From contig NZ_UWOT01000003.1 of the NCBI RefSeq assembly GCF_900604535.1, positions 186,216-210,215 on the forward strand: DNA of 24,000 bases, written 5' to 3'. A program made the translations under genes and the position numbers. Positions 1 to 24,000 of the stretch are shown one piece after another. The first letter of the stretch is position 1. Each line of letters opens with the position of its first letter. Source of the DNA: Romboutsia sp. Marseille-P6047. Its GTDB lineage: Bacteria; Bacillota; Clostridia; Peptostreptococcales; Peptostreptococcaceae. Under the pieces are notes generated by a model. It searched no databases, had not been told where the DNA came from, and saw nothing but the letters and a program-made list of their open reading frames with translations.

Positions 1-383
1 ATTTAGGGACAGGTGTATTTACATCCATATTGGTTGCATCAATAGCGTTATTTGCAGTATTAGCTAAATTATCAAGTAGAAAAGAAGCTGGACATTATCT
101 GGGACTAGGAAGTATATTATTCGCTGGACTTATAGGTATACTAATAGCATTGATAATTAATATATTTATAGGGGGAGCAATGCTTAGTTTATTAATAAGC
201 ATAGTGGGTGTAGTAATATTTTCTGGCTATGTTCTTTATGATATAAGTTTAATAAAGCATGAGATAGAAAATGGTGAAATAAGAGAAAAGAATGATCTCT
301 CTCTACATGTTTTAAACCTTTACTTAGACTTTATTAATATATTACTAGATTTATTGAATATAGCATCAATTTTAGATGATTAA
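1..383 (+). CDS. BAX inhibitor-1/YccA-family integral membrane protein, C-terminal part (5' end lies outside the window)
   Basis: The frame is open from base 3 to the TAA at 381-383. The TTG at 30 listed in the ORF track is internal to this frame. The sequence is strongly hydrophobic and multi-TM, ending ...LHVLNLYLDFINILLDLLNIASILDD, which resembles the C-terminal region of BI-1/YccA proteins. Confidence 0.6.
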   Translation, partial: LGTGVFTSILVASIALFAVLAKLSSRKEAGHYLGLGSILFAGLIGILIALIINIFIGGAMLSLLISIVGVVIFSGYVLYDISLIKHEIENGEIREKNDLSLHVLNLYLDFINILLDLLNIASILDD

Positions 384-397
384 TATATAATATTTTT

Positions 398-451
398 ATA
401 GAGGTGGCTAAACCCAATTTTAAAATGATTGGTTAAGCTATCTCTATTTTT
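398..451 (+). terminator. Rho-independent terminator after the BI-1-like gene
   Basis: A long imperfect hairpin: atagaggtggctaaacccaat (398-418) pairs with attggttaagctatctctat (428-447), including G-U wobbles. A T-run follows at 447-451. Confidence 0.6.
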
Positions 452-505
452 ATACATATAATGTTATAATAATTATAGTATAAATATAACAAAGGGGTGT
501 TTATT

Positions 506-1510
506 ATGATAACTAATGAAGATTATATAAGATATGAACCTATGGTATATAAGATTGCTAATAAATTTAAAAATAATATATATAAATTAGAGATAGAGGA
601 TTTAGTTCAAATAGGGTCTATGGGTTTTATAAGAGGGTTTAATACATATGACGATACAAGGGATTGTAAAAAAGATACTTGGATATATTCATGTATAAAG
701 AGAGCTATATTAAGAGAATTTCAAAATTTAAAGAGAATAAAAAGACAATCTTTAGCTAATTCAATATCAATAGATACACCTATAGGTGGACTGGATGAGG
801 ATATAACAATAGCTGATACGATAGAAGATATAAATATAAATGTATCAGATGAAACTATAGATAAAATAACAATAGAAGCCTATAAAAAAGAAGTAAATAT
901 GATATTAAATGGAATAGAACATTATATTGCTTATGAAACCTTATTTACTGATAAGACATTAACTGAGGTATCAGCTTCAAAAGGAATAGAATACTCAAAG
1001 GCAAAGCATATACAAAATAAAGCATTTAGAGAATTAAAGTTTAAGAGTAAATTAATACGTTCTAAGTATATGGAGTTAAAAGAGCAAGAGGCGGAGAATA
1101 ACATAATTAATTTATATAAAGATCCTGCAAAATCAATTTATATTCATGAAATAAGCAAAGAATTAAGAAATAAATACAGACATGAGCTTGATGTTATAGA
1201 TACTATACAAACTATATTTGATGGACTAGATACATATAAGAGGAATAAGGTTATACAAGGATTTATATTAAGTTTAGATGATATTGTAGAAGCTAAAGAT
1301 CTATTTATATATAAAACTATTGCAGAAGGTAATAGAGCTTATCTAAAGGATAAATATAGCTTTAGTGATATTTATTTTGTGGAAGATAGAATAAAAAATA
1401 CTATTTCTAAAAATAAAGATTTAGTATATGATTTATGGATAAGTTTTAATGACAATTATAAAGAAGATTTAAATAATGAATTTGATAAAAGTATTATTTT
1501 CGATAGATAG
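506..1510 (+). CDS. Sigma-70 family sigma factor-like protein with a ~140 aa C-terminal extension of unknown function
   Basis: ORF 497-1510. The ATG at 506 lies 8 nt after AAAGGGG (491-497). There is a region-2-like segment (EDLVQIGSMGFIRGFNTYD...TWIYSCIKRAILREF) and a region-4-like HTH (TLTEVSASKGIEYSKAKHIQNKAFRELK). I recognise no motif in the last ~140 aa. Confidence 0.6.
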   Translation: MITNEDYIRYEPMVYKIANKFKNNIYKLEIEDLVQIGSMGFIRGFNTYDDTRDCKKDTWIYSCIKRAILREFQNLKRIKRQSLANSISIDTPIGGLDEDITIADTIEDININVSDETIDKITIEAYKKEVNMILNGIEHYIAYETLFTDKTLTEVSASKGIEYSKAKHIQNKAFRELKFKSKLIRSKYMELKEQEAENNIINLYKDPAKSIYIHEISKELRNKYRHELDVIDTIQTIFDGLDTYKRNKVIQGFILSLDDIVEAKDLFIYKTIAEGNRAYLKDKYSFSDIYFVEDRIKNTISKNKDLVYDLWISFNDNYKEDLNNEFDKSIIFDR

Positions 1511-1650
1511 AGTAGTAGATAATAGTAATAATATTTTTAATAGTAATCAAGTTACCTTAGATATGATTTTAGGACTATAAAAATATCTTCTATGGGTTAC
1601 AGAGAGGTTTTGAATAATAAATAAGGTAATTATACCCATACATAGAGTTA

Positions 1651-1692
1651 AAAAAGAAACTAGGCTAAATAAATGGCTTAGTTTCTTTTTTA
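1651..1692 (+). terminator. Rho-independent terminator downstream of the sigma-like gene
   Basis: aagaaactaggc (1654-1665) pairs with gcttagtttctt (1676-1687), with one G-U. The loop is 10 nt and a T-run extends to 1691. Confidence 0.75.
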
Positions 1693-1768
1693 TTTCGTTT
1701 CCATTTTTGGAATCGTTAATATTTATTTAATATCTAATGTTTTATTGAGGTATCAGAGATTGCATTTA

Positions 1769-1790
1769 TTACGGTAAGGTTACGGTAAGG
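1769..1790. repeat. Tandem 11-nt duplication (ttacggtaagg x2, then partial taag)
   Basis: Direct reading: ttacggtaagg at 1769-1779 and again at 1780-1790. Confidence 0.9.
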
Positions 1791-1927
1791 TAAGCGAGTC
1801 ATAGATGTATTACAACGATTAGATTAGTATAAGGTATGCTAAGTTTGTGTTTAGTAATGTTAAGGTTGAAATATGTGAGAAAATGAGCGTTTAAATTGCA
1901 GATAAAAGACTATATAATTGCTAACAT

Positions 1928-2020
1928 AATGAACGAATATAGTTGCGCACTTCCCCAATCTGCAAATTTGCAGACTGCTGATTTCTTTATCACAATGAAC
2001 ACATATAGTTGCGAACTTCC
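1928..2020. repeat. Two 27-nt direct repeats (24/27 identical, 66-nt period) flanking a perfect 14-nt palindrome
   Basis: aatgaacgaatatagttgcgcacttcc (1928-1954) versus aatgaacacatatagttgcgaacttcc (1994-2020). The palindrome ctgcaaatttgcag lies at 1960-1973, and a related half-site aaattgcaga is at ~1895-1904. Confidence 0.9.
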
Positions 2021-2137
2021 AAAACGACAAATAAAAATTACGAAACCAACTCAAATTTCAATTTCCAAAACAAACAACTCAAATAAAAAACGCGGTCAAA
2101 TGGCTATTTATCAAGCTTTAAGTATTGTAATATCAAC

Positions 2138-2159
2138 GTAGTAGTAATGTAGTAGTAAT
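2138..2159. repeat. Tandem 11-nt duplication (gtagtagtaat x2)
   Basis: Direct reading: 2138-2148 and 2149-2159. A perfect 12-nt palindrome tggagtactcca follows at 2181-2192. Confidence 0.9.
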
Positions 2160-2329
2160 AGGAACGTTGCATACTTTTTATGGAGTACTCCAAATGGCAC
2201 GCTCCAAAAGGGTGCACTTATAAAATAAGCTACAATACTGTATTTTACTAGGGTTTAAGCTTCTAAATCAATGTAGTATAATAAAAAGTATAAATTTGCT
2301 TAGTATTTAGGTTATTCTGGAGGATGTAT

Positions 2330-2977
2330 ATGAATGTCATTGATATAAAGAATATAAAAGGTTTATCAGGAAAATATTCAATAAAGTTTGGTAAAGAAAA
2401 GAAATATGTAAACATAGAGGATGATAAGATAACATTATTTGGTCGTATAAAAAGTTATGCTCATGGAGGTTGGTGTAACTATAAAATACAAGATATATTT
2501 ATATCTAAGCAAAAGACAGGTTTTGGAGAAAAGAAATTCTTTGTTTGCCCAGAATGTGGTGAGCGAAGGACTAAAATTTATTGCTATGATAATAAAGAAG
2601 TATTTAAATGTAGAAGCTGTTTAGGTAAAAATATATATTCTGAAAGATGTAATTTATATGATGGAGGAGGGGTAGCTCTTATTGAATATAAGTTTTTTAA
2701 TTTAATATCGGAGCTTGATTTAAGCGAAACCTCAAAGAAAAGACATATACCTTTTGATAGTAGATATTATGGATCATGCAAACCTAAATATATGAGGTAT
2801 GAAAAGTTTGAGTTAATATTAAAGCAATTAACAGCTTTATCAGCTATGAGAGATACTGTTATATTACAAAAGTGCTCATATAGTACTAAGTATATAAATG
2901 GATTATTGAATAGTAATGTACTAAAGAAGCTTAAGTTAATAGATATACCTGATGCTATATGGTTTCATGAAGTATAA
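2330..2977 (+). CDS. Hypothetical zinc-ribbon protein
   Basis: ORF 2324-2977. GGAGG at 2319-2323 favours the ATG at 2330. A sigmaA-like promoter lies upstream (TTTAAG, 17 nt, TATAAT at ~2254-2282). The protein has a CPEC...CRSC pair (FVCPECGERRTKIYCYDNKEVFKCRSC). No other family was recognised. Confidence 0.55.
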   Translation: MNVIDIKNIKGLSGKYSIKFGKEKKYVNIEDDKITLFGRIKSYAHGGWCNYKIQDIFISKQKTGFGEKKFFVCPECGERRTKIYCYDNKEVFKCRSCLGKNIYSERCNLYDGGGVALIEYKFFNLISELDLSETSKKRHIPFDSRYYGSCKPKYMRYEKFELILKQLTALSAMRDTVILQKCSYSTKYINGLLNSNVLKKLKLIDIPDAIWFHEV

Positions 2978-3094
2978 GTATTAATAGAATATATAGAGTA
3001 ATTATTAGAATATAAATAGTAACCATAATTATAATATTTAACATATTATAATTAAATGTAAGTTATAAGACAATAATTTAAAAAGAGGTTTTTA

Positions 3095-3123
3095 TTGTTA
3101 GACCAACGATAGGATGGTATAAT
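3095..3123 (+). promoter_or_regulatory. SigmaA-type promoter of the peptidase/cyclase/TM cassette
   Basis: TTGTTA (3095-3100), a 17-nt spacer, then TATAAT (3118-3123) preceded by TGg (extended -10). The RBS aaggaagggag (3134-3144) precedes the ATG at 3151. Confidence 0.6.
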
Positions 3124-3150
3124 CTTGTTAATAAGGAAGGGAGTGGTATA

Positions 3151-3678
3151 ATGGATTATCGTACTAGAAATATAATAAATAAATTGGCTGATGAGATTAT
3201 AGAATCTTATAAAATTACCGCACCTATTGATGATTTAGAAAGTTTTGTGGAATCTATTGGAGGTAAAGTGACAGAAAATAATCTTAAAAGTGGGTTCTAT
3301 GATGGTCGTATAACTACTCAAAATACAGATTATGAGTTTGAGATTTTTATTCCGGAAAATCAGTATCTAGAAAGAAAAAAATTCACAATAGCACATGAAT
3401 TAGGACATTTATTTTTGCATATGGGTTACCAAATAGATGATGATTTATGGGAGGAGCAACGAGGTAGAGATTACTATAGAAATGGTAGTTCAGAAGAAGA
3501 GCTTCAAGCTAATGAATTCGCAGCAGCATTATTAATGCCAAGGGATGAATATAAGAAAATAATGGAGAAATATACGGACGGAGTATCCGTTAATACAGCT
3601 GAAATTGCTAGATACTTTGGTGTATCTATACAGGCTGCAGCTAATAGAGGAAAATGGTTAGGGTATTTAGCATGGTAG
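3151..3678 (+). CDS. ImmA/IrrE-family (M78-like) zinc metallopeptidase
   Basis: 175 aa. It has the HEXXH motif in FTIAHELGHLFLH, plus the downstream EEELQANEFAAALLMP segment typical of ImmA/IrrE (DUF955) peptidases. Its stop codon overlaps the start of the next gene. Confidence 0.8.
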   Translation: MDYRTRNIINKLADEIIESYKITAPIDDLESFVESIGGKVTENNLKSGFYDGRITTQNTDYEFEIFIPENQYLERKKFTIAHELGHLFLHMGYQIDDDLWEEQRGRDYYRNGSSEEELQANEFAAALLMPRDEYKKIMEKYTDGVSVNTAEIARYFGVSIQAAANRGKWLGYLAW

Positions 3679-5156
3679 ATAAAAAACTTAATTTGGATAG
3701 TAGTCTTATAAAATCTTTGAAAGAGATACGAGAAAATACTGAAGAAGAAAGTAAGAGTAGCAATGTTATTTTATTTTTTTCGTATGATATAGTTAATTCA
3801 TCTTTATATAAAACTGTTAACTATTCAAGTTGGACTATAGTAATAAATAATATATTTAAATACGTAGATAGTTTAGTTACGGAAAGAATGCCTAATTGTG
3901 AATTATGGAGGATACTAGGAGATGAAGCCGTATATATTGTACAAATAAGAGATATTGAACAGATATATAAAAATATTGACTCAATATTTGAGATACTTTG
4001 CAAAACAAAAGAGTATTTATCTAGTGGAGAAATATTTAAAAATTGTAAGTCTGAAATAGATATAGAAATAATGAAAATGCAAAATATATTATCTATAAAA
4101 GGGTCTTCTTGGTTAGCCATTGTTGCAAATGATATTAATGCAAAGGGGTCTAACGTTGAAAATGCTTATTTGCATTATAATAATTTTGAATCAATAAAAA
4201 ATCCAGGTTTTTTTGAATTTTTAGGTAAAGATATAGATGCTGGATTTAGAATTTCAAAAGAAACAAGAGATAGAAGGTTAGTTTTAAGCTTTGAGCTTGC
4301 ATATATTTTGAAAATGAGAACAGATTACTTATCAAAGCTGAATCTAATAACATTTAGAAGACTTAAAGGTATCTGGCATGAAAAATTATATCCAATTATA
4401 TGGTTTCATGATAGAGAAAAGTTTAAAAATATATCATTTGAAGAAAGTTTTAAATTTGATGAGCTAGAAGAAGATGAGCTATCTAGGGAATATTTTAATA
4501 ATAGAAAAAAAGGTAATAGTAGTAATATAAATCAGTATATTTATGAAGATATAAATGGTGCATTAGATAAGATTTTAGAAGATAGAAATCTAAAAAACAA
4601 GATAGAAAAAATATATTCTACTATAGAGGCTACATCGGAATATCATAAAGACTTTACTAATATAATACCTTTAGAAATGCATTGTGTAGCTATTTGTTAT
4701 AAAGTAAATAAATCTGATGGATCAATACAAATATTAGTTGCAAAGAGATCTAGTAAGAAAAAACAAAATCCATCAATATGGGAGTTTGGATGTGCAAAAG
4801 CTAATTATAAAGATAGTATTATAGATACTATAAAAAATGAGTATAAAAAAGATTTTAATATAGATATTGATCTAATATGTTACGAAGATAGAAATGAAAA
4901 GCAACCTATACCTATAGCAGTATATGAAATTGAAAAAGGTTCAGATATACATAAAGGTGTAATATTCATAGCAGAATGTAAGAATGATGAATCCGTAGTA
5001 CGTATAAATGATAAACATGAAGAAGTAAAGTGGATTAATGTAGAAGAAATAGAAACTTTTAGAGATGAAGAATGTGTATTAGATTTTAAAAATACTATTA
5101 ACATAGCCTCTAAGAAAATAAAAGAAATGAGGGAAAATATATTCGAGTATGCCTAA
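3654..5156 (+). CDS. Fusion protein: N-terminal class III nucleotide cyclase-like domain (PycC/adenylate-guanylate cyclase fold) plus C-terminal Nudix-fold domain with a degenerate Nudix box
   Basis: 500 aa; an alternative start is the ATG at 3672 (ATGgTAG overlap with the peptidase stop). Cyclase-like motifs: ILFFSYD45IVNSS (compare FxDIxGFT), WRILGD90EAVYIV (compare KTIGDAxMAxF), LGKDIDAGFR199ISKETRDRRLVLS (compare GxxVNxAxRxxxxxxxxxIxVS) and ITFRRLKG239IWHEKLYPIIWF (compare LKGxxxPVxVYxL). Nudix-like: HCVAICYKV...ILVAKRS...IWEFGCAKANYKDSIIDTIKNEYKKDFNI aligns to WxxPGGxxExGExxxxAAxRExxEExGU, but REx2EE is NEx2KD. ...HEEVKWINVEEI lies at the end. Confidence 0.75.
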   Translation: MVRVFSMVDKKLNLDSSLIKSLKEIRENTEEESKSSNVILFFSYDIVNSSLYKTVNYSSWTIVINNIFKYVDSLVTERMPNCELWRILGDEAVYIVQIRDIEQIYKNIDSIFEILCKTKEYLSSGEIFKNCKSEIDIEIMKMQNILSIKGSSWLAIVANDINAKGSNVENAYLHYNNFESIKNPGFFEFLGKDIDAGFRISKETRDRRLVLSFELAYILKMRTDYLSKLNLITFRRLKGIWHEKLYPIIWFHDREKFKNISFEESFKFDELEEDELSREYFNNRKKGNSSNINQYIYEDINGALDKILEDRNLKNKIEKIYSTIEATSEYHKDFTNIIPLEMHCVAICYKVNKSDGSIQILVAKRSSKKKQNPSIWEFGCAKANYKDSIIDTIKNEYKKDFNIDIDLICYEDRNEKQPIPIAVYEIEKGSDIHKGVIFIAECKNDESVVRINDKHEEVKWINVEEIETFRDEECVLDFKNTINIASKKIKEMRENIFEYA

Positions 5157-5716
5157 AAGAAATTTTGAACAGGACGTTTTGGATGACTTAAAGTATATAT
5201 TTGAGAATGTAAACAATTGGCTTAACTTTGCGGAGTTAAAGAATGGAGCATTATTAGTATTTCTAACAACAGTCATAATTGGATTAACCCAATTAAATTT
5301 ACCTGATGATAGTAATATACTAATCAAGATATTTTATATAGTATCAATGATTGATATACTTATAAGTATAATTATATTACTACTATCTTTTGTTCCTAAG
5401 ATAAGTAATATAAAGCCTAAATATAATGCTAATATAAATTATCTTAATAAGAATCTTATATTTTGCAGATATAATCAAAGCTAGGGATTATGAAGAATAT
5501 TTAATAAATATATATGAGGATTATTACAATACAATTGTATCCAAAGAAGAGTTAAACTTAAAAGAAAAGCATTTAGCTGAGGAGATTTTTATAAATTCAA
5601 ATATAGCATCTAATAAATATAATTATTTTAAATATAGCTTATATTGCTGTTTACCTGGTATAATTTTATCAATTATACTTATATTAATGATTTATATAAC
5701 AAGCTATATATACTAA
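5149..5716 (+). pseudogene. Small 3-TM membrane protein (putative effector; possibly Pycsar-effector/SLATT-like), interrupted by a 1-nt frameshift
   Basis: The ATG at 5149 overlaps the upstream stop (ATGCCTAA). Frame 1 ends at the TAG at 5482-5484. Frame 2 is open from 5438 to the TAA at 5714-5716 and encodes ...FADIIKARDYEEYLINIYEDYYNTIVSKEELNLKEKHLAEEIFINSNIASNKYNYFKYSLYCCLPGIILSIILILMIYITSYIY. Deleting one T from the T4 run (5461-5464) joins both parts into a ~188 aa protein with three hydrophobic helices. The second part has no start codon of its own near its beginning. Confidence 0.7.
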
Positions 5717-5742
5717 ATTAAATAAATTGTTTTACATATAAT

Positions 5743-5770
5743 AAGGATTCTTGATATAGAGTCCTTTTTT
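5743..5770 (+). terminator. Rho-independent terminator closing the three-gene cassette
   Basis: aaggattc (5743-5750) pairs with gagtcctt (5759-5766), with one G-U. T6 follows at 5765-5770. Confidence 0.7.
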
Positions 5771-6506
5771 ATTACAACTATCAGAACTATAAATATCAGA
5801 ACACAATTACAATTAAATTTAAAGAAAATAAAAAGGTTAAATAAGGAATCGATTAGATATAATGAGATTCAATCTAATTTACAAAATAATAAATAGAGCA
5901 ACTTTTATAGAGATATTGAAAATATTATGATGTAAATGTAATAATTGTTTATTATTATGTTGGCCGATTGCTAAAGAGTGCATCTATTTTGATTTATAAT
6001 GTATCCTTTTTATATATTAATAAGAATATGCAAAACGATGAATAAGAATGATATTTACATAAATATTCAGATCAGAGACTTGATGTTTCAATATTATATA
6101 AATTTTACTTAGTATCATTTAGCTAGTTAATAATTATAAAGTTTATATTTGTTAGAAAATAAGAGTGGAAATAATATAGTATACATGTGTGTTATAAGAT
6201 AAAAAATAAACTTCTTAATATAATAGAATGAGAATGATACCAAGATAGATTTTAATATTTAACGTATAAAAAGTTGTAAAGCATAAATTGGATTATAAGG
6301 CACTCGCATTATATTAGTAATGTATTTATACCTTGTAATGCTTAAAATGGCATATAAAAGATATAACACAAAATAACACAATATTAACACAACTAATATG
6401 AAAAATAATAGAAAGTGCAAATTTTACATTAGCATATTGTATTAGCAAAAGTATTGATATAACTAAGTTTGATTGAATGTAGAAAAATATTAAAATTATA
6501 ATTATA

Positions 6507-6540
6507 GACTCCCCTCGTCTCCACCATTAAAATCCACGAA
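6507..6540 (+). repeat. tmRNA (ssrA) 3'-end fragment plus conserved flank (att-site remnant), copy A
   Basis: gactcccctcgtctccacca (6507-6526) reads as T-loop end, T-stem 3' strand, acceptor 3' strand CGTCTCC and ACCA of a Firmicute-type tmRNA. It is followed by ttaaaatccacgaa (6527-6540), a flank shared with copies B and C. No tmRNA 5' part (GGGGACG..., tag ORF) lies upstream. Confidence 0.65.
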
Positions 6541-6543
6541 AAG

Positions 6544-6570
6544 TCATACTAAATTTAGTATGATTTTTTT
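6544..6570 (+). terminator. Rho-independent terminator immediately after ssrA-like copy A
   Basis: tcatacta (6544-6551), loop aatt, tagtatga (6556-6563), then T7 (6564-6570). Confidence 0.75.
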
Positions 6571-6735
6571 GTATGAAAGAATTATATATTTATTAAAAAA
6601 ATGTTAACTCTATTATAACTAAGTTAAAAGTATATAAACTAAAAAAAAATATGCTAGTATGTTAAATAGGCTATGTTAAACTATTTGTTCAACATAGTCT
6701 ATTAAAAAAATAAATTTAGTAGAGGTAATTAAGTT

Positions 6736-7461
6736 ATGATAAAGAATTTTGCACATCGTGGATTTAGTGGTAAGTATCCAGAAAATACTCTTTTAGCATT
6801 ACAAAAAGCGATAGAAATAGGTAGTGATGGCATTGAATTTGATGTTCAGTTAACAAAAGACGGACAAGTTGTAATTATACATGATGAAACTATAGACCGT
6901 ACTTCTGACGGAACTGGATATGTATGTGATTATACTTATGATGAACTAATAAAATATGATTTTTCAGGACGTTATATGGGGAAAGTTGAAAAACAAAAAC
7001 TACCTCTTTTAAAAGACTACTTTGAAATGGTTAAAGACACTAACATTATTTCAAATATAGAATTAAAAAATAGCATTCTTGATTATAAAGATATAGAACA
7101 AAAAGTGTATGGATTAATAGTGGAATATGGTTTAAAAGATAAAGTTATTATTTCATCTTTCAATCATGAAAGTATAATTAGAATGAAAAAAATTGATGAA
7201 AGTATTGTATGTGGTTTTCTTGTAGATTGTACTATGTTAGATGCACCAATGTATATCAAAAAATATAATGTTGAGTGCTTCCATCCTTCAGGATATAGCT
7301 TAACAAAAGAAAAGGTAGAAGCTCTACAAAATCAAGGTATATTGGTTAATGTATGGTTAGGAAGTCATAACATGGATTACAAAGAACTAATAGATATGGG
7401 AATAGATATACTAATATCAGATAATCCAGATCAAGTAAAAGAAATTATAAGCAACTTATAG
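6736..7461 (+). CDS. glpQ: Glycerophosphodiester phosphodiesterase (GDPD family)
   Basis: 241 aa. The N-terminus FAHRGFSGKYPENTLLALQKAIEIGSDGIEFDVQLTKDGQVVIIHDETIDRTSDGTG is the classic GDPD signature (HRG...PENT...E.D...T.DG..V..HD). Confidence 0.85.
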   Translation: MIKNFAHRGFSGKYPENTLLALQKAIEIGSDGIEFDVQLTKDGQVVIIHDETIDRTSDGTGYVCDYTYDELIKYDFSGRYMGKVEKQKLPLLKDYFEMVKDTNIISNIELKNSILDYKDIEQKVYGLIVEYGLKDKVIISSFNHESIIRMKKIDESIVCGFLVDCTMLDAPMYIKKYNVECFHPSGYSLTKEKVEALQNQGILVNVWLGSHNMDYKELIDMGIDILISDNPDQVKEIISNL

Positions 7462-8545: not shown

Positions 8546-9613
8546 ATGGCAAAGATAATTTTAGAAAATATTAAGAAAAGTTATAGCAAAAAAAATACTG
8601 TAATAGAAAACTTAAATTTAGAAATAGAAGATGGTTCATTTACAGTATTAGTAGGTCCATCAGGATGCGGGAAATCTACAACTTTAAGAATGATAGCAGG
8701 TCTAGAAGATATTACAGATGGAAATCTATTTATAGGTGATAGGGATGTAACTAAGGTAGATGCAGGACAAAGGGGGATATCAATGGTTTTCCAAAATTAT
8801 GCTTTATATCCTCACATGAGTGTAAAGGAAAATATAGAATTTGGATTAAAAAATAATAAAGTAAAAAAAGAAGAGAGAGAGAAGCTCATAGCAGAAGTTT
8901 CTTCAGTAGTAGGATTAGATGAATATTTAGAAAGAAAACCATCTGACTTATCAGGAGGTCAAAGACAAAGAGTAGCTTTAGCAAGGGCTATGGTAAAAAC
9001 ACCTAAGGTATTTTTAATGGACGAGCCTTTATCAAACTTAGATGCAAAACTAAGAAATCAAATGAGAAGTGAGCTTATCCAACTTCATAACAAGTTAAAG
9101 TCAACATTTGTATATGTTACTCATGATCAAGTCGAAGCAATGTCTATGGCAGATAAGATAGTAATAATGAATAAGGGTGAGATAATACAAATAGATGCAC
9201 CAAAAGAAATTTATCAAAATCCTAAAAATATATTTGTTGCTCAATTTATAGGAAGTCCAGCTATGAATATACTAGATATGAATGTATGCCACGAAAAATA
9301 TGGATTTAGGCCAGAAAAAATTAAGTTAGAAGCAGATGATAATTTTGATGGAATAGTTTTAAACGGAACAATACTTACAAAGGAAATTTTAGGGTCAGAA
9401 GTGCTTTATTGTGTAAACGTACAAGGTAAAGATATAATGATAAAAACTGAAACTGATACTTTAAACTTTGATGAAAAAGTACAGTTATTCGTAAATAAAT
9501 CGGATTTATATTATTTTGATACAAATGGAAATAGAATCGAAAATGAAAAACAAATACAGGGGTTATTTGAATTAATAAATGATAAGGAGAGTTTAAATGA
9601 AAAAGCAATATAA
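8546..9613 (+). CDS. ABC transporter ATP-binding protein, MalK/UgpC/MsmK type with C-terminal regulatory domain
   Basis: Walker A GPSGCGKST, Q-loop, signature LSGGQRQR, Walker B FLMDEPLSNLD and H-loop VTHD. The ORF opens at 8534, but GGAG at 8537-8540 favours the ATG at 8546 (MAKIILENI). Confidence 0.85.
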   Translation: MAKIILENIKKSYSKKNTVIENLNLEIEDGSFTVLVGPSGCGKSTTLRMIAGLEDITDGNLFIGDRDVTKVDAGQRGISMVFQNYALYPHMSVKENIEFGLKNNKVKKEEREKLIAEVSSVVGLDEYLERKPSDLSGGQRQRVALARAMVKTPKVFLMDEPLSNLDAKLRNQMRSELIQLHNKLKSTFVYVTHDQVEAMSMADKIVIMNKGEIIQIDAPKEIYQNPKNIFVAQFIGSPAMNILDMNVCHEKYGFRPEKIKLEADDNFDGIVLNGTILTKEILGSEVLYCVNVQGKDIMIKTETDTLNFDEKVQLFVNKSDLYYFDTNGNRIENEKQIQGLFELINDKESLNEKAI

Positions 9614-10463
9614 ATCTTATCTATATATAATGCCTGCTTTAATAGGAATACTTGTATTTGTAATATATCCAATATTGTACACAATATACTTAAGTTTTCA
9701 ATCGGGAAGTTTGATGAGTCCAACTTTTACATTTGCAGGGTTAGATAACTATAAGGATCTTTTAAAAGATGGAGACTTTATAATAACTTTGAAAAATACA
9801 GCAATCTATACAGTAGCAATGGTTACTATTTCTATTTCATTAGCACTAGTATTTGCAGTATGGTTAAACAAACAAAGTTTTATGCACAAGCTTACACAGA
9901 CTATAATATTTACACCTCATATAGTTTCTCTTGTATCAATAGGTGTACTATTTATGTGGCTTATGAATCCTGATTATGGATTTTTAAACTTTGTACTAGA
10001 GAAGATAGGTCTTGAACCATCTACATGGTTATCTAGTGATAAAACAGCTTTATTCTCAATAATACTAGTTGGAATATGGAAAACAGTAGGATACAATACT
10101 TTAGTGTTTGTAGCAGGTCTTCAAGGTATACCGAAGTATATTTATGAAGCTGCAAACTTAGATAATAGTGGACCAATAAAGACCTTCTTTAAAGTTACAT
10201 TACCTCTACTATCACCAACAATATTTTTCCTATTAATAACAACGACAACAGCGTCATTCCAAGTGTTTGACTTAATAAATGTTATGACAAAGGGAGGACC
10301 AATAAACTCTACAAATATGTTAGTTTACTACATTTATGAAGCAGGGTTTAGATATTACGATATAGGGATAGCATCGGCTGCAAGTGTGTTCTTAATAGTA
10401 TTAGTAGGTATTTTGACTTTTGCACACTTTAAACTATTATCTAATAAGGTTCATTACCAATAA
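9597..10463 (+). CDS. ABC sugar/glycerophosphodiester transporter permease (UgpA/MalF-like)
   Basis: 288 aa multi-TM protein with an EAA-loop-like EAANLDNSGPIKTFFKVTLP. The RBS AAGGAGAG is at 9584-9591. The start overlaps the ATPase gene end. Confidence 0.8.
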   Translation: MKKQYKSYLYIMPALIGILVFVIYPILYTIYLSFQSGSLMSPTFTFAGLDNYKDLLKDGDFIITLKNTAIYTVAMVTISISLALVFAVWLNKQSFMHKLTQTIIFTPHIVSLVSIGVLFMWLMNPDYGFLNFVLEKIGLEPSTWLSSDKTALFSIILVGIWKTVGYNTLVFVAGLQGIPKYIYEAANLDNSGPIKTFFKVTLPLLSPTIFFLLITTTTASFQVFDLINVMTKGGPINSTNMLVYYIYEAGFRYYDIGIASAASVFLIVLVGILTFAHFKLLSNKVHYQ

Positions 10464-18150: not shown

Positions 18151-19119
18151 ATGAAAAAAGTAATAAGTATAGGAGAAGCTTTAATTGATTTTATACCTAA
18201 TCAAAAAAGTTGTGAACTAAAGGATGTAATAGGTTTTGAAAGAGTAGCGGGAGGAGCGCCTGCTAATGTTAGTGCTGTAGTATCAAAACTTGGTGGAAAA
18301 TCAAATTTCATATCAAAGCTAGGTAGGGATGCTTTTGGAGATCATATAATAGAGGTTTTAAAAGAGGCTAATGTAAATACAGATTATGTATTAAGAACAG
18401 ATAAAGCTAATACAGGATTAGCTTTTGTTTCTTTAAAAGAAGATGGAAATCGTGATTTTTCATTCTATAGAAATCCAAGTGCAGATATGTTACTAGAAGA
18501 AAACGAAGTAAAAAAGGAATGGTTTAAAGATTGTCATAGCTTACATTTTTGTTCAGTAGATTTAATAGAGTGTCCAATGAAGTATGCACATAAAAAAGCT
18601 ATAGAATTTGCACTAGAAAATAAAAGTATAATAAGCTTTGATCCAAATGTAAGGTTACCTCTATGGGATAGCGAAGAGTCATGTAGAGATGCAATAATAG
18701 AGTTTTTACATTTAGCTCATATAGTTAAAATATCTGATGAAGAATTAGAATTTATAACGGGGTATGATACTATGGATGAGGCTAAAGAAGTATTGTTTAA
18801 AGGTAATGTGAAGCTAGTTTTATTTACAAAAGGAAAAGGTGGAGCTGAGGCATATACTAAGGATAAAATTGTTAAAATACCTGGGAATGTTGTGGATGTA
18901 GTTGATACAACAGGAGCAGGGGATTCATTTATTGGTTCATTTTTATTTAAACTATTACAAGATGATATAAATATGGAAAGATTTGATAGTATTAGTGCTG
19001 AAATGTTAAAAGAATACTTAGTATTTTCAAATTGTTATGCCGCCTACAGTACAACTAAAAAAGGTGCGATTGGATCATATGCTACATTAGATGAGATAAT
19101 AAAGTATATGAATCAATAA
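18151..19119 (+). CDS. scrK: Fructokinase (PfkB/ribokinase family)
   Basis: The ORF opens at GTG 18142. AAGGTGG (18139-18145) favours the ATG at 18151. ISIGEALIDFIP, GGAPANV and DTTGAGDSFIG are typical of bacterial fructokinases. Confidence 0.8.
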   Translation: MKKVISIGEALIDFIPNQKSCELKDVIGFERVAGGAPANVSAVVSKLGGKSNFISKLGRDAFGDHIIEVLKEANVNTDYVLRTDKANTGLAFVSLKEDGNRDFSFYRNPSADMLLEENEVKKEWFKDCHSLHFCSVDLIECPMKYAHKKAIEFALENKSIISFDPNVRLPLWDSEESCRDAIIEFLHLAHIVKISDEELEFITGYDTMDEAKEVLFKGNVKLVLFTKGKGGAEAYTKDKIVKIPGNVVDVVDTTGAGDSFIGSFLFKLLQDDINMERFDSISAEMLKEYLVFSNCYAAYSTTKKGAIGSYATLDEIIKYMNQ

Positions 19120-19142
19120 ATTAGTATATAAGTATGAATCTA

Positions 19143-19186
19143 GGGTATTACTCCTATGATTCATCTTCACCATTAAAATCCACGAA
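19143..19186 (+). repeat. Degenerate tmRNA (ssrA) 3'-end-like sequence plus conserved flank, copy C
   Basis: gggtattactcctatgattcatcttcacca followed by ttaaaatccacgaa. The flank is identical to copy A, and the tmRNA-like part is the most diverged of the three. Confidence 0.5.
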
Positions 19187-19217
19187 TACCTATATCCTTT
19201 TGGATATAGGTATTTTT
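19187..19217 (+). terminator. Rho-independent terminator after copy C (also terminates the sucrose operon)
   Basis: tacctatatcc (19187-19197), loop tttt, ggatataggta (19202-19212), then T5. Confidence 0.8.
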
Positions 19218-19329
19218 ATATTTTAAATATAAATACTATTGATAAAACTATCAAAAAAGTATTTACTTAAAGTATAAGAATTCACATAAAAATTACAAAA
19301 ATACAATAAAAGTGTTTCAAGGAGGGGTT

Positions 19330-20042
19330 ATGGTTAGGATAGCAATTTGTGAAGATGAAAAAGAAACACAAATATTATTAGAAAGTAATCTTAATAATAT
19401 ATTAAAACATACAAATAAAGAATATGAAATAAAAAAATATAGCTCTGGAGAAGAACTACTAGAAAGTGAATTAAATCATATAGATATATTACTTCTCGAT
19501 ATACAAATGGGACAAATAAATGGTATGGATACTGCAAGAAAAATAAGAGAAATAGATGATAACATGGAAATCATATTTATAACTTCATTGATAGATTATG
19601 TTCAAGAAGGATACGAAGTAAGAGCGTATAGATATCTATTAAAACCCATAGAATTAGAAGAATTAAAAAAACATATATTAACATGTATCAGAGAAATTGA
19701 AAAAACAAAAATCAGTATATTTTAATAAAGAATAAATCTAACACATATAAGATTTATTCTAATGAAATAACTTATATAGAAGTTCAAAAAAAGGATATGC
19801 TAATACATACAATAAATAAAGATTTTAATGCTAGATATAGTTTAGAAAAAATAGAAAAAGATTTAAATGTAGAAGAATTTGTAAGATGTCATAAGAGTTT
19901 TATAATTAACTTAAATCATGTAGAGAATATAAAGTCAAATGTTGCAATACTAGATAGTGGTGAAGAAGTACCTATTAGTAGATACAGACATAAAGATATA
20001 AAGGAAAAATTCTTGAAATTTATTGGTGATAGAATATGCTAA
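19330..20042 (+). pseudogene. LytTR-family response regulator, frameshifted between the receiver and LytTR domains
   Basis: The receiver domain (RIAICEDE...ILLLDIQMGQINGMDTARKIRE) ends at the TAA at 19723-19725. The LytTR domain (KNQYILIKNKSNTYKIYSNEITYIEVQKKDMLIHT...FVRCHKSFIINLNHV) is open from 19701 in another frame. Adding one A to the A6 run at 19700-19705 restores a single ~238 aa ORF. RBS GGAGG at 19321-19325, ATG at 19330. Confidence 0.75.
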
Positions 20043-21414
20043 ATCCTATAAATGACATGTTACTAATATTATCAATATTTATACCAATGATTATACTAGA
20101 AAGTATATTAACTTATAATAAAGATACAGATAGGTCTAAAAAGATTTCTTTTTTTATTTTATTATTATTAAACTATATTATAGTAAAATAATAATATTAT
20201 TTAGTGTAGGTAAATTTTATGAATATAATATTATTTATATCTTAACTTTTATTATTTGGGGAGCATATTATAATTATTTTTATACACTAGGAATTATTAA
20301 ATATATAGTTTCATTTTTTTTATTTGATGTATATCACTCTTTGATAAGGGATATTATATCTAGAAGTTTATTTTTATAGTTACAGGTAATGTGATTTTGT
20401 CAAAAGAAGCTTTATTGATTTCTAATTATGATTATGCTAAAGTTGAGATATATACATACATAATAATAATATCTATCTATATGATAGCTTATTTGACATT
20501 TAGGCTTTTAAATAATAAATTACAATTATATGAAGATAATAAGATAAATTATATATATTTATCGATTGCTTTAATGGTAAATTTACTTACTATAGTTATA
20601 ATTTATATAAACAAGAAAATAGAGCGATTTGGTGGATATTCAGAACTATATGTAGTTGGGTATATTGTAACACCAAAGTTAATATTAGCAAGTAGTCTTT
20701 TATTATTGTGTTGTTTATAAAAATAATTAGAGAGAATAGAATACAATCTCAAAATGAAATAATAAAAAACAAATTAGATATGCAGTATTCTCATTATTTA
20801 AGTGTTCAGAAATCACATATGAAGGTTAAGAAGCTTTATCATGATATAAATAATCATATATATTGTATAGAAAATCTTAAAAATAATAATAGAGAAATTA
20901 ATGAATATGTAAATAGTTTGAAAAATGAGATCAAAGAATTTAAATCAATCTACAATACAGGCAATATTATACTAGATATTATAATAAATGAAAAAAGTGA
21001 TATATGTATAAAAAAGGGAATTAAATTTATTTGCGATATCAATTTTTCAAAGGTTAATTTTATAAAACCAATAGATGTATCTAGTATATTTGCTAATATT
21101 TTAGATAATGCGATAGAAGCTTGTGATAAAATACATGATGAAAATATTAATAGATATATTAGAATAAAAGGAACTATTTCAAAATGTTACTTTGTACTAA
21201 AATGTGAAAATAGCAAAGTTAATAGTTTGAAGTTTAATAAGAATATTCTATTGACAGAAAAAAAGACAAGTTCATACATGGAATAGGAATTCAGAGTATT
21301 AAATCATCTATACAAAAGTATGATGGAGAATTATTATTTGAAGACGAAAAAAATAAATTTACAATAACTATATACATACCGCTTAATCAAAATACTGACA
21401 GTGGGGGCTTTTAA
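20036..21414 (+). pseudogene. AgrC/LytS-like GHKL sensor histidine kinase, broken into five frame segments
   Basis: The start ATGCTAA overlaps the response-regulator stop. Open segments are 20036-20191, 20140-20379, 20364-20720, 20696-21286 and 21241-21414. The N-terminal part is polytopic. H-box KKLYHDINNHIY, N-box FANILDNAIEA, and the G-box HGIGIQSIKSSIQKYDG (readable only after a shift at the A7 run 21258-21264). Every junction falls at an A/T homopolymer. Confidence 0.7.
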
Positions 21415-21450
21415 CCTACCAGTTGGGGCATATATATTGATACTGAATAT

Positions 21451-21490
21451 AAGGGATGTTATCTTTTAATAGCAAAAGATAAGGTCCCTT
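21451..21490 (+). terminator. Long hairpin after the kinase gene (probable terminator)
   Basis: aagggatgttatctttt (21451-21467) pairs with aaaagataaggtccctt (21474-21490), with a 2-nt internal mismatch. It is followed by tcttagttt (weak U-tract). Confidence 0.5.
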
Positions 21491-21644
21491 TCTTAGTTTG
21501 TGATAGAAAGATCTAAACAATAAATGGAGGAATATTAGATGAAAAGTATTTAACAAGAATGAATAATCAAAGCGTGTAAAATATCTGTAAATCTACTTAA
21601 AAGATTAATTGGATAAATAATTTATAGTAAAATGGGAGGCTTGT

Positions 21645-24000
21645 ATGGGAATTTACTTAAAAATGTCACTAGCATATTTAAGGAGAAATAAACTTAGAAC
21701 GTCATTTTTAATACTTGGAGTTGTATTAGGTGTAGTACTTATATTTGGAACAAATGTTATAAAAGAGTCAAATAACAAAAATGATTTAGAAGCAATAGAC
21801 AAGCTTTATGGCGGACATCATGTAGAATTTAGTGATTTAAATAATGAAGGTGTAGAAAAATTAAAAAAGGATAAAGATGTATCAAAAATTACAACAGTTC
21901 AAAATTTAGGAAGTGTTGTAAATGATAAAGGAAATTATATATTACTAAGGTCAGCAAATGAAGATTATATCAAAGGTAAAGCGAATAAATTAACTGGTAG
22001 GCTTCCTAAAAATAATAATGAGATAGTTCTAGAAAAAAGGGCTTTAGAATCAATGGGAGAACCTTATAAGCTAAATTCTACTTTAAACCTTATAGTAAAA
22101 AAGGATTACAAAGATTCTGAAGGTAATAATCAAATTTATACACAAGATCAAGAATTTAAACTTGTGGGAATTATAGAAAAACCAGAAGGTTACTATGACG
22201 TTGTTTGGACATATGAAGGTTTTACTTATGGTAATTCAGAATTGGATAATATAATTCCAACAGAATTAGTTACATATAACAGTATATTAGATTTAAAAAC
22301 TGGGATAAAAAATCTTGATAGAAATGTTAAAAAAATTAGTGATAGAAATGACTTAGGAAGAACAAGTTTCTTACCAAATGTACCACTTGTACAGAAACTA
22401 GCAGATATTGAAATAGAAAGTGCTAAATCAAAAGAATCAATTCAATTAGAAGTATTAATTATAATTGCAGCAGTAATTTTTATATTTAATATGTTTAACA
22501 TAGCGCTAAATCAAACTATGAAAGAAATAGGACTTTTAAGGTTAATAGGCTCAAGCGAAAAGAAGGTTAGATTAATATTAATATATCGAGCTTTCATTAT
22601 TATGGTTATAGGCATAATTTTAGCGTTAATACTAGGAACTTTATATTCATATGTAGGAGTTAATACATATAATGTTGAGATATATAAAGAAGCCTCGATT
22701 GCTCCAAAACTATATATAAGTAATAGAAATATTGTAAAACCTATATTAGTAGGAATATTCTCAGTATCTATTCCTTGTATCATAGCAATGTGTAAGATTG
22801 GGAATATATCACCTATAGAAGCAATGAGTAACAATGAAAAAGTTAAAAGTTATAGTAAGGGATATAAATTAAATAAAGTTTTAAACAAAATATTTGGATT
22901 TTATGGATTTATGGGACTTAAAAATATTGGAAGAAATAAATCTAGGTCAATTATATCATTAATATCAATTGCACTTGGAGGATATATATTTATAACTAAT
23001 TTCTCAAGCATGCAAGATGAAGTAGGTGCTAAAATTGAGGACATGCAAAATAGATATGATGTAGTTATGCAGTTTAATGGAGCTGTCTCATATTTAGAAA
23101 GCTTAAAATACACAGATACTGATGTAGATAAAATAAAGTCTGTAGATGGGGTAAAAAGTGTAAATACAATAAATGTAGTTAGTGGATTCTTTGATTTCAA
23201 AAAGGATGAAATAAATGAAGAGTTTGCAAAGTATAACGGAATAGAAAATACAGAGCATAAAATGGACTTAAAAATATATGGAAATAATTATATAAATAAA
23301 GATTTAAAAAAATTTGTAGAGTACGGAAATCTAGACGATTTAGGAAAAGAAACTGATGGTTATCCCAATGTAGCAGTATACAATTATTTTTATGAAAGAG
23401 AAAAGGATTATACTTTGAAAAAGGTATTTAAAGATATAGAGGTAGGAGATATTTTAACAATAAAAGTTCCAGCCAAAGAAGACAATAAAACTGTATATAA
23501 AGAAAGTAAAGTAAGAGTATGCTCAACACTAACACCAGACTGGATGTCTATGGGAGATGGTCAATTTGGGAATAACTTTGAAATTGTAACTTCAAAGAAT
23601 CATTCAGAATCATTAATAGGAGAACAAAAATATACAAAGCTAGGTATAAATTTAGAAGACCCGTATGATGAAGTTGTAAATGAAAAGTTAGAAGAAATTT
23701 CAGATAGAATTCATTTATCTACTTTTAAAAGTAGAGTAGGATATGTAGAGTGGGCTAGTGAGTCAAGCCAAGAATATATAAAATCTAAGATATCACTTAT
23801 AGTATTAGTCTTAATAATAGCTGAAATTAATATTTTCTGTACAATAAGAACTAATTTGCTTGTTAGAAGAAAAGAAATATCAACACTTAGAGCCTTAGGT
23901 CTTAGTATTAAAAATATGAGAAAAATGATTATTTATGAAGCATTAGCCTATTCAATATTTAGTTTTATGATTGCTTTAATACCAGCTATAATAAACCTAA
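21645..24000 (+). CDS. Large FtsX/MacB-type ABC transporter permease with two FtsX modules (3' end beyond the window)
   Basis: This ORF is not in the supplied track because it has no stop in the window. My manual translation from the ATG at 21645 (RBS GGGAGG 21634-21639) to 24000 found no stop codon. It starts MGIYLKMSLAYLRRNKLRTSFLILGVVLGVVLIFG. The first FtsX-like block is ...MKEIGLLRLIGSSEKKVRLILIYRAFIIMVIG. A second N-terminal-like segment is FMGLKNIGRNKSRSIISLISIALGG. The second FtsX block is RRKEISTLRALGLSIKNMRKMIIYEAL. The antisense ORFs 22511-22834 and 22901-23200 are shadows of it. Confidence 0.8.
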   Translation, partial: MGIYLKMSLAYLRRNKLRTSFLILGVVLGVVLIFGTNVIKESNNKNDLEAIDKLYGGHHVEFSDLNNEGVEKLKKDKDVSKITTVQNLGSVVNDKGNYILLRSANEDYIKGKANKLTGRLPKNNNEIVLEKRALESMGEPYKLNSTLNLIVKKDYKDSEGNNQIYTQDQEFKLVGIIEKPEGYYDVVWTYEGFTYGNSELDNIIPTELVTYNSILDLKTGIKNLDRNVKKISDRNDLGRTSFLPNVPLVQKLADIEIESAKSKESIQLEVLIIIAAVIFIFNMFNIALNQTMKEIGLLRLIGSSEKKVRLILIYRAFIIMVIGIILALILGTLYSYVGVNTYNVEIYKEASIAPKLYISNRNIVKPILVGIFSVSIPCIIAMCKIGNISPIEAMSNNEKVKSYSKGYKLNKVLNKIFGFYGFMGLKNIGRNKSRSIISLISIALGGYIFITNFSSMQDEVGAKIEDMQNRYDVVMQFNGAVSYLESLKYTDTDVDKIKSVDGVKSVNTINVVSGFFDFKKDEINEEFAKYNGIENTEHKMDLKIYGNNYINKDLKKFVEYGNLDDLGKETDGYPNVAVYNYFYEREKDYTLKKVFKDIEVGDILTIKVPAKEDNKTVYKESKVRVCSTLTPDWMSMGDGQFGNNFEIVTSKNHSESLIGEQKYTKLGINLEDPYDEVVNEKLEEISDRIHLSTFKSRVGYVEWASESSQEYIKSKISLIVLVLIIAEINIFCTIRTNLLVRRKEISTLRALGLSIKNMRKMIIYEALAYSIFSFMIALIPAIINL

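Follow-up and report, generated by a model that had tools for sequence, protein, structure and literature searches.

What is the 3′ end of a tmRNA gene (ssrA) doing in a stretch of DNA that holds no tmRNA? We asked this of 24,000 nucleotides from Romboutsia sp. Marseille-P6047 (contig NZ_UWOT01000003.1, positions 186,216 to 210,215; hereafter the window, numbered from its first letter). On the plus strand at 6507-6526, the window carries GACTCCCCTCGTCTCCACCA, which comprises the last 4 nt (GACT) of a T-loop (TTCGACT), the 3′ strand of a T-stem (CCCCT), the 3′ strand of an acceptor stem (CGTCTCC) and ACCA. A first-pass annotation, made from the letters of the window, had recognized the layout of a tmRNA 3′ terminus in these nucleotides and proposed that they mark the boundary of an element inserted at ssrA. 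The fragment sits in a 1.25-kb non-coding stretch of ~20% G+C between ORFs that end at 5484 and start at 6736. It is the only match to GACTCCCCTCGTCTCCACCA on either strand of the window, with up to three mismatches tolerated, and none of 100 dinucleotide-preserving shuffles yielded a match. ARAGORN called no tRNA or tmRNA genes in the window, and Rfam returned no tmRNA or tRNA at the gathering score for the whole window or at E ≤ 10 for positions 5800-6800. The fragment is therefore isolated, as first annotated: the tRNA-like domain, tag reading frame and pseudoknots of a functional tmRNA are absent from the window, and 20 nt are all that it holds of the gene. We read 6507-6526, with a probability of about 0.93, as the attR scar left where a 17.07-kb element integrated into the 3′ end of the single Romboutsia ssrA gene, the attR core being the displaced last 20 nt of that gene. 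The fragment itself is without function; it is a boundary marker and would be the substrate of excision.

The empty site and the chromosomal flank

Contigs with the same locus were found by exact-protein look-up of the GDPD phosphodiesterase gene to the right of the fragment (6736-7461, plus strand), the usual downstream neighbour of ssrA. One of them belongs to a conspecific, island-free Romboutsia genome (GCA_900066495.1; L002), in which the genes for RNase R and SmpB are followed by ssrA, 210 nt and the GDPD gene, with a gap of 700 nt between SmpB and GDPD. ARAGORN, the tool that the first-pass annotation had recommended for locating the gene, placed ssrA at 9439-9791 of this contig (353 nt, tag ANDNYALAA), and the last 20 nt of the called gene are identical to the window fragment. 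The 3′ end that had been described as near-perfect is in fact perfect, matching the real ssrA at 20 of 20 positions, and the 5′ acceptor strand, guessed at the time as GGGGACG, reads GGGGGCG in the island-free genome and forms two G-U pairs, at positions 3 and 5. By BLAST, the window is homologous to L002 from precisely position 6507 onwards, over 10,955 bp at 99.66% identity. The comparison with a genome that lacks the insert, proposed at the outset, thus supplies an empty site with its breakpoint at window position 6507.

To the right of the breakpoint, the 210 nt from the CCA to the GDPD start codon are common to the window and the empty site, a hairpin and T-run included. Positions 6527-6570 (plus strand) are the native ssrA 3′ flank left at attR with its original intrinsic terminator and are identical to 9792-9835 of L002. 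Folding placed the terminator hairpin at about 6538-6569 (plus strand) and its T-run at 6564-6570; the combined segment 6538-6570 folds with −15.6 kcal/mol (z = −4.3) and is, base for base, the native ssrA terminator of the island-free genome. A simple terminator scan misses this A+T-rich site because the stem has fewer than three G-C pairs, and the hairpin is recovered by folding. The earlier statement that the fragment comes with its own terminator therefore needs qualification: a terminator is present, but it is the original one of ssrA, left behind at the junction. We also considered, and rejected, a placement of the island on the right-hand side of the fragment, since the right flank is the native ssrA flank of the empty site. 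GDPD is the first chromosomal gene beyond the island. The boundary is fixed to the base, with mobile DNA to the left of 6507 and chromosome from 6527 onwards.

Some features of the A+T-rich DNA at this locus are recorded here in their own right. Ahead of the GDPD start codon, an imperfect hairpin of 39 bp (6665-6703) is present as its exact in-place reverse complement relative to L002, a micro-inversion of the hairpin; at the island-bearing loci checked (L001, L003 and L004) its orientation is that of the window. The simple terminator scan of 5400-6800 returned a sole site (5743-5766), located after the PycTM gene described below, where the cargo cassette is non-coding. Very low G+C content (about 20-25%) is found a second time at 19100-22500, downstream of sucrose-utilisation genes, in DNA with few long ORFs.

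The occupied site and its proposed recombination

The window itself holds neither ssrA nor an integrase, and the whole element was read from a 99.96% identical contig (L001, L007 and L018). The Logan contig SRR29119085_124 (L001) matches the window at 99.96% over 17.5 kb, and the differences are only five small deletions of 1-2 bp, including those at 1491, 5461, 5701 and 5788. Walking upstream via the zinc-ribbon protein (L007) led to a partial integrase gene, the N-terminus of which matches a protein (P0007) annotated as from Romboutsia sp. Marseille-P6047; look-up of P0007 then led to L018. In L018 an intact ssrA follows SmpB, and its 3′ end reads ...GGTTCGACTCCCCTCGTCTCCACCA continued directly by ATAATTGC... 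When L018 and L007 are joined, the distance between the two exact copies of the 20-mer is 17,068 bp, and 10,536 nt separate the ssrA 3′ end from the start of the window. The fragment at 6507-6526 is thus an exact direct repeat of the intact ssrA 3′ end at attL, and the identity of the 20-bp repeat extends on neither side. Island-bearing (L018 and L017) and island-free (L002) copies of ssrA are identical at 353 of 353 positions, which indicates that the island regenerates the gene exactly.

Window positions 1-6506 (plus strand) constitute the right-hand 6.5 kb of this 17,068-bp ssrA-integrated island; its left 10.5 kb, which lies upstream of the window as does ssrA, carries the integrase, a regulatory switch and replication genes. 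The first-pass annotation had assigned the cyclase cassette, the sigma-like gene and the zinc-ribbon gene to an element at ssrA and had expected the intact ssrA and the integrase upstream of the window. All of the former lie inside the island, and both of the latter are on the 99.96% identical contig, where the gene for a 394-aa tyrosine integrase is 2.1 kb from ssrA. Two outcomes named beforehand as arguing against insertion did not materialize: both the strand of ssrA and its 3′ end are those expected from the fragment, and, among contigs that carry the left-hand genes and reach far enough, all have either the ssrA fragment to the right or the integrase and ssrA to the left. The same data bear on the notion that the 20-mer is a chance match, or the relic of a decayed ssrA duplicate, that arose without any insertion. 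Short match length is the sole point in favour of such an origin, which is rendered exceedingly improbable by the shuffles (0 of 100), by the exact homology breakpoint against the empty site and by the exact direct repeat of the intact gene end 17 kb away with an integrase in between; we rejected it on these grounds.

The arrangement is that of a tDNA island. Islander searches apply the tDNA-island principle through a signature of an intact tDNA and a displaced fragment of its cognate end, and ssrA is the most enriched tDNA target (PMC4383910). On the 99.96% identical contig, the 353-nt ssrA and the 20-nt fragment share strand and replicon and are 17,068 bp apart, within the 2-200 kb range; the fragment is a terminal 3′ piece that includes the CCA, lies downstream of the intact ssrA and overlaps no conserved coding domain; and a tyrosine integrase is encoded between the two. 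The unoccupied site exists in L002, and the target is restored at all 353 positions. As in Islander/TIGER islands (PMC4383910), a tyrosine integrase, an attP copy of the gene 3′ end and a regenerated target are accompanied by a displaced 3′ fragment, which shares the orientation of the gene and, from its downstream position, delimits the far end of the island. The identity block runs from the T-loop across the T/acceptor junction, as in the T-stem-region class of Islander (PMC4383910), and the CP4-57 prophage of Escherichia coli and the ssrA islands of Dehalococcoides (PMC3146451) are kindred examples with no difference in kind. The literature searched yielded no description of the island family, with its Peptostreptococcaceae hosts and 20-bp core. 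Within the scope of that literature, the element represents a previously undescribed island family of a well-known class, and the understanding of tDNA islands is unchanged by it.

Integration would involve recombination by the tyrosine integrase between the 20-bp identity block of attP and the last 20 nt of ssrA (attB), with attP composed of a P arm, GACTCCCCTCGTCTCCACCA and a P′ arm. The copy of the gene end in attP accounts for the intact ssrA at attL, which is followed by an island-borne terminator; the original 3′ end, with the native terminator, is displaced by 17 kb to a place just before GDPD. A hairpin and T-run of island origin directly follows the CCA of ssrA at attL in all three variants examined, and the working ssrA copy now uses this island-borne hairpin. 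Excision would yield a circle with the attP junction ...TTATAGACTCCCCTCGTCTCCACCAATAATTGC... and a repaired attB that would read ...CCACCATTAAAATCC... directly after ssrA. Searches of viral and metagenome contig collections returned no match to the circle junction (P arm, core and P′ arm).

The P arm of the island attachment site (6202-6506, plus strand) is non-coding and conserved between variants that differ in cargo; the homology of the window with one such variant (L003) resumes at 6202. At 6364-6392 (plus strand), the motif (T)AACACAA occurs as three direct repeats with spacings of 10 and 11 nt. They include all three copies of TAACACAA in the 24-kb window, 115-143 nt before the core, and a cluster of three such repeats appeared in 1 of 2000 shuffles of the island. 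The reconstructed attP has two more AACACAA copies in the same orientation, 79 and 90 nt past the core, on the attL side and outside the window. The repeats are kept in seven related contigs (L003, L004, L008, L009, L017, L019 and L021), where their flanks diverge. Both arms retain AACACAA in L003/L017 and in L019/L021 despite diverged surroundings, and L004, which also has the motif, carries a different island at the same site. These repeats are putative arm-type binding sites for the integrase or an excisionase. The variant L003/L017 also offers a clue to the crossover point, as its attR reads GAATCC where ssrA has GACTCC (A for C at position 3). The A at position 3 must come from the variant attP, and thus strand exchange would have occurred to the right of this position, inside the last 17 nt of the block.

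Gene content and class of the element

From attL, the island terminator and the two AACACAA repeats are followed by three genes (encoding 381, 94 and 155 aa) and the integrase. Next come an HTH_3 repressor-like protein, a cro-like HTH, an HTH_17 protein, a replication initiator and DnaB; then five small ORFs, a DUF3885 protein, a Bax1-I protein, a sigma-70 region-2 protein and a zinc-ribbon protein; and, at the right end, an M78 peptidase, a 494-aa protein, a PycTM effector, about 1 kb of non-coding DNA and attR. PADLOC, Pfam and PHROGs gave nothing usable for the three genes between attL and the integrase. The integrase gene is convergent with ssrA, and its 394-aa product contains PF14659 and PF00589 domains and matches PHROG 1 (E = 8e-81); its RLGE, HGLRH and DIYTH motifs are predicted to supply the catalytic Arg, His-x-x-Arg and Tyr. 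The 291-aa HTH_3 repressor-like protein is encoded divergently from the 65-aa cro-like HTH. A weak HTH_17 match and similarity to PHROG 66 (excisionase; E = 2e-5) make the 103-aa HTH_17 protein a candidate excisionase. The replication initiator carries a Phg_2220_C domain and matches PHROG 428 (E = 2e-39), and the DnaB helicase matches PHROG 19 (E = 8e-84).

Within the window, the island genes begin with the C-terminal part of the Bax1-I family membrane protein (30-383, plus strand), whose gene starts upstream and encodes 221 aa in L007. The sigma-70 region-2 protein (497-1510, plus strand) matches PHROG 351 (sigma factor; E = 5e-24). In the window it is shortened to 337 aa, as opposed to 358 aa in other copies, owing to a 2-bp deletion at 1491, and the exact-protein look-up of the window gene returned no match because of this frameshift. 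The 215-aa zinc-ribbon protein (2330-2977, plus strand) is kept in variants with and without the cyclase cassette.

PHROG and Pfam searches of the 22 island proteins detected no packaging, head or lysis family and no terS, and a megablast search with 14.2 kb of island sequence matched none of 50,697 phage records. We scored the island against the criteria for phage-inducible chromosomal islands (PICIs) of the SatelliteFinder model (PMC10085698), using Pfam and PHROG profiles. It has an integrase and a primase/replicase module, and no tail, holin or portal genes were found in it; since neither terS nor a capsid-morphogenesis gene was recognized among the 22 proteins, we did not class the element as a PICI. 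The similarities to PICIs and SaPIs (PMC10085698) include the size of 17 kb, the int gene, the divergent repressor/cro-like pair, the excisionase-like HTH protein and the replication initiator plus helicase, as well as the position of accessory genes after the replication module and of anti-phage cargo near the ends. Unlike PICIs, the island has no recognized helper-hijacking gene and at most three of the five core components, and it encodes its own sigma factor. Judged by its genes, the element appears to work like a tDNA-targeting integrative island of a satellite-like kind. The combination of a phage-like switch and replication module with a lack of virion, packaging and conjugation genes leads us to conjecture that its movement may require a helper, most likely a phage.

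Many of the small integrase-bearing islands of Firmicutes are mobilizable elements, and the island could in principle be an integrative mobilizable element that is moved by conjugation on an ICE or plasmid rather than by a helper phage. Such a mode of transfer would agree with the lack of detected packaging or capsid-remodelling genes. We consider it quite unlikely, however, because Pfam and PHROG calls included no relaxase, coupling protein or other conjugation gene, and the modules that were recognized are of phage type (the repressor/cro-like pair, HTH_17, PHROG 428, PHROG 19 and PHROG 351).

Cargo, variants and hosts

The cargo cassette at the right end of the island comprises three overlapping genes (3151-5484; L053-L058). 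The first (3151-3678, plus strand) encodes an M78 (ImmA/IrrE, CapP-like) metallopeptidase (PF06114, E = 1e-21; PADLOC capP, E = 9e-30). The second (3672-5156, plus strand) encodes the 494-aa protein, with a predicted class III nucleotide cyclase fold in its N-terminal part and a predicted Nudix fold in its C-terminal part. The third (5149-5484, plus strand) encodes a PycTM/2TM membrane effector and is frameshifted in the window, where a 2-bp deletion at 5461 reduces the product from 185 to 111 aa. The intact effector of L007 matches the PADLOC models 2TM (E = 5e-40) and PycTM (E = 8e-23) and PF18967. The 494-aa protein had no Pfam, PADLOC-cyclase or PDB sequence match. Its family consists of hypothetical proteins of roughly 480-520 aa, the alignment of which contains the motifs FFSFDIVNSS, WRVLGDE and FxFDIxN, with FFSFDxxNS and GDE invariant. 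An AlphaFold (AF2) model built from 43 sequences had a pLDDT of 82. Foldseek aligned the N-terminal half of this model with CyaC (1wc4, TMt 0.73) and the model with CyaC, Cya2 and CyaB at TMt 0.66-0.76; the C-terminal part aligned with the MutT/Nudix structure 3grn (TMt 0.80).

Taken together, the M78, cyclase-Nudix and PycTM genes resemble a Pycsar cassette. As in Pycsar, a protein with a class III cyclase fold precedes an overlapping gene for a PycTM/2TM effector; the adjacent effector gene is intact in L007 and frameshifted in the window, and the likeness to a class III cyclase lies in the modelled fold only. In contrast to Pycsar, the island cyclase has no match among the cyclase models of Pfam and PADLOC and bears a Nudix-fold domain in its C-terminal part; translationally coupled upstream of it is the gene for a CapP-like M78 peptidase, without a CapH-like partner; and the effector is frameshifted in the window copy. 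We therefore describe the three genes, on the basis of their predicted products and order, as a putative Pycsar-like cassette. The cassette travels as a unit between genomic settings that are unrelated to one another, as seen in contigs that carry a homologue (P0161, annotated as from Lachnospira sp.), and it is also found between DAP epimerase and gatCAB in another genome.

The island itself recurs with different cargo and in different hosts. In L008, L009, L010 and L013, the same right-hand island and 20-mer are followed by 16 conserved nt and then by other terminators and host genes, flanks that place the same island in other host backgrounds. We rejected the alternative of tandem islands for L008 and L009, where different ssrA terminators and host genes follow the 16 conserved nt. 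Overall, the gene order of roughly 17 kb is repeated across many samples and no fewer than three chromosomal backgrounds, with cargo swaps only at defined slots. The variant carried by Romboutsia sp. 1001713B170207_170306_H8 (L003/L017) lacks the 3.2-kb cyclase cassette, and a different set of genes separates its sigma gene from its zinc-ribbon gene. The DNA from attL to int is a variable cargo slot: it is filled by three genes of no recognized family in L018 (11240-13159), by a UvrD-like (UvrD_C_2) helicase and DUF2290 pair in L017 (11310-14161) and by the toxin-antitoxin pair RnlA/RnlB throughout L019-L026 (11220-12758 in L019).

Five metagenome contigs contain the attR junction, as does a single IMG/VR contig of 19.8 kb, and the listing of the latter as viral is among the observations that would suit a decayed, immobile prophage remnant with the fragment as a fossil attR. 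So are the frameshifts of the sigma and PycTM genes in the window, the lack of an attP junction in public contig collections and the absence of virion genes. The frameshifts could be real decay or sequencing or assembly errors. A remnant nevertheless appears unlikely to us: the att repeats are identical at 20 of 20 positions, the integrase is full-length with its catalytic motifs, the island has no DNA similarity to deposited phages, and the recurrence of the ~17-kb gene order in at least three backgrounds argues for a maintained, transferring element.

At least two further islands use the same ssrA site within this species, in L004 and L005, with identity blocks of 18 and 12 nt, respectively. 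The element in L004 (1-9791) is unrelated, encodes DUF927, EAL and histidine-kinase proteins and has the 18-nt block; that in L005 (1-97) is also unrelated and shares only the 12-nt block (TCGTCTCCACCA). Integrases with 78-85% identity are encoded in Paraclostridium dentum, P. ghonii, P. tenue, Romboutsia lituseburensis and Asaccharospora irregularis (one genome per species). In each of them the integrase gene is convergent with a tmRNA gene that lies 1-3.5 kb beyond it. The linkage is shared by a Fusobacteriaceae MAG whose integrase is 37% identical, and over all of these relatives the distance is 1-5 kb. In Clostridioides difficile GCA_018743805.1 (L059, 1-10830), a 72%-identical integrase adjoins smpB, and the accompanying module resembles that of the island, with HTH regulators, an HTH_17 protein, a replication protein and DnaB. 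The island family thus probably extends to C. difficile.

A more far-reaching interpretation, which we put forward tentatively and regard as possible rather than probable, is that these elements constitute an undescribed ssrA-targeting satellite family of gut Peptostreptococcaceae (Romboutsia, Paraclostridium, Asaccharospora and C. difficile relatives) with defined slots for anti-phage systems, whose own sigma factor might take over the late genes of the helper and so replace the role of terS or capsid remodelling. The slots would be the attL-int interval (RnlAB; UvrD-like plus DUF2290; or the three genes) and the region near the P arm (M78-cyclase/Nudix-PycTM).

These results show that ssrA is a much-used target for insertion in Romboutsia, where no fewer than three kinds of island have settled in it. 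The pair of attP and attB sites with a 20-bp core, together with the cognate integrase, is ready-made for gut anaerobes that are poorly tractable. Furthermore, one island family carries interchangeable anti-phage systems at this site, with relatives in Paraclostridium sordellii and, probably, in C. difficile.
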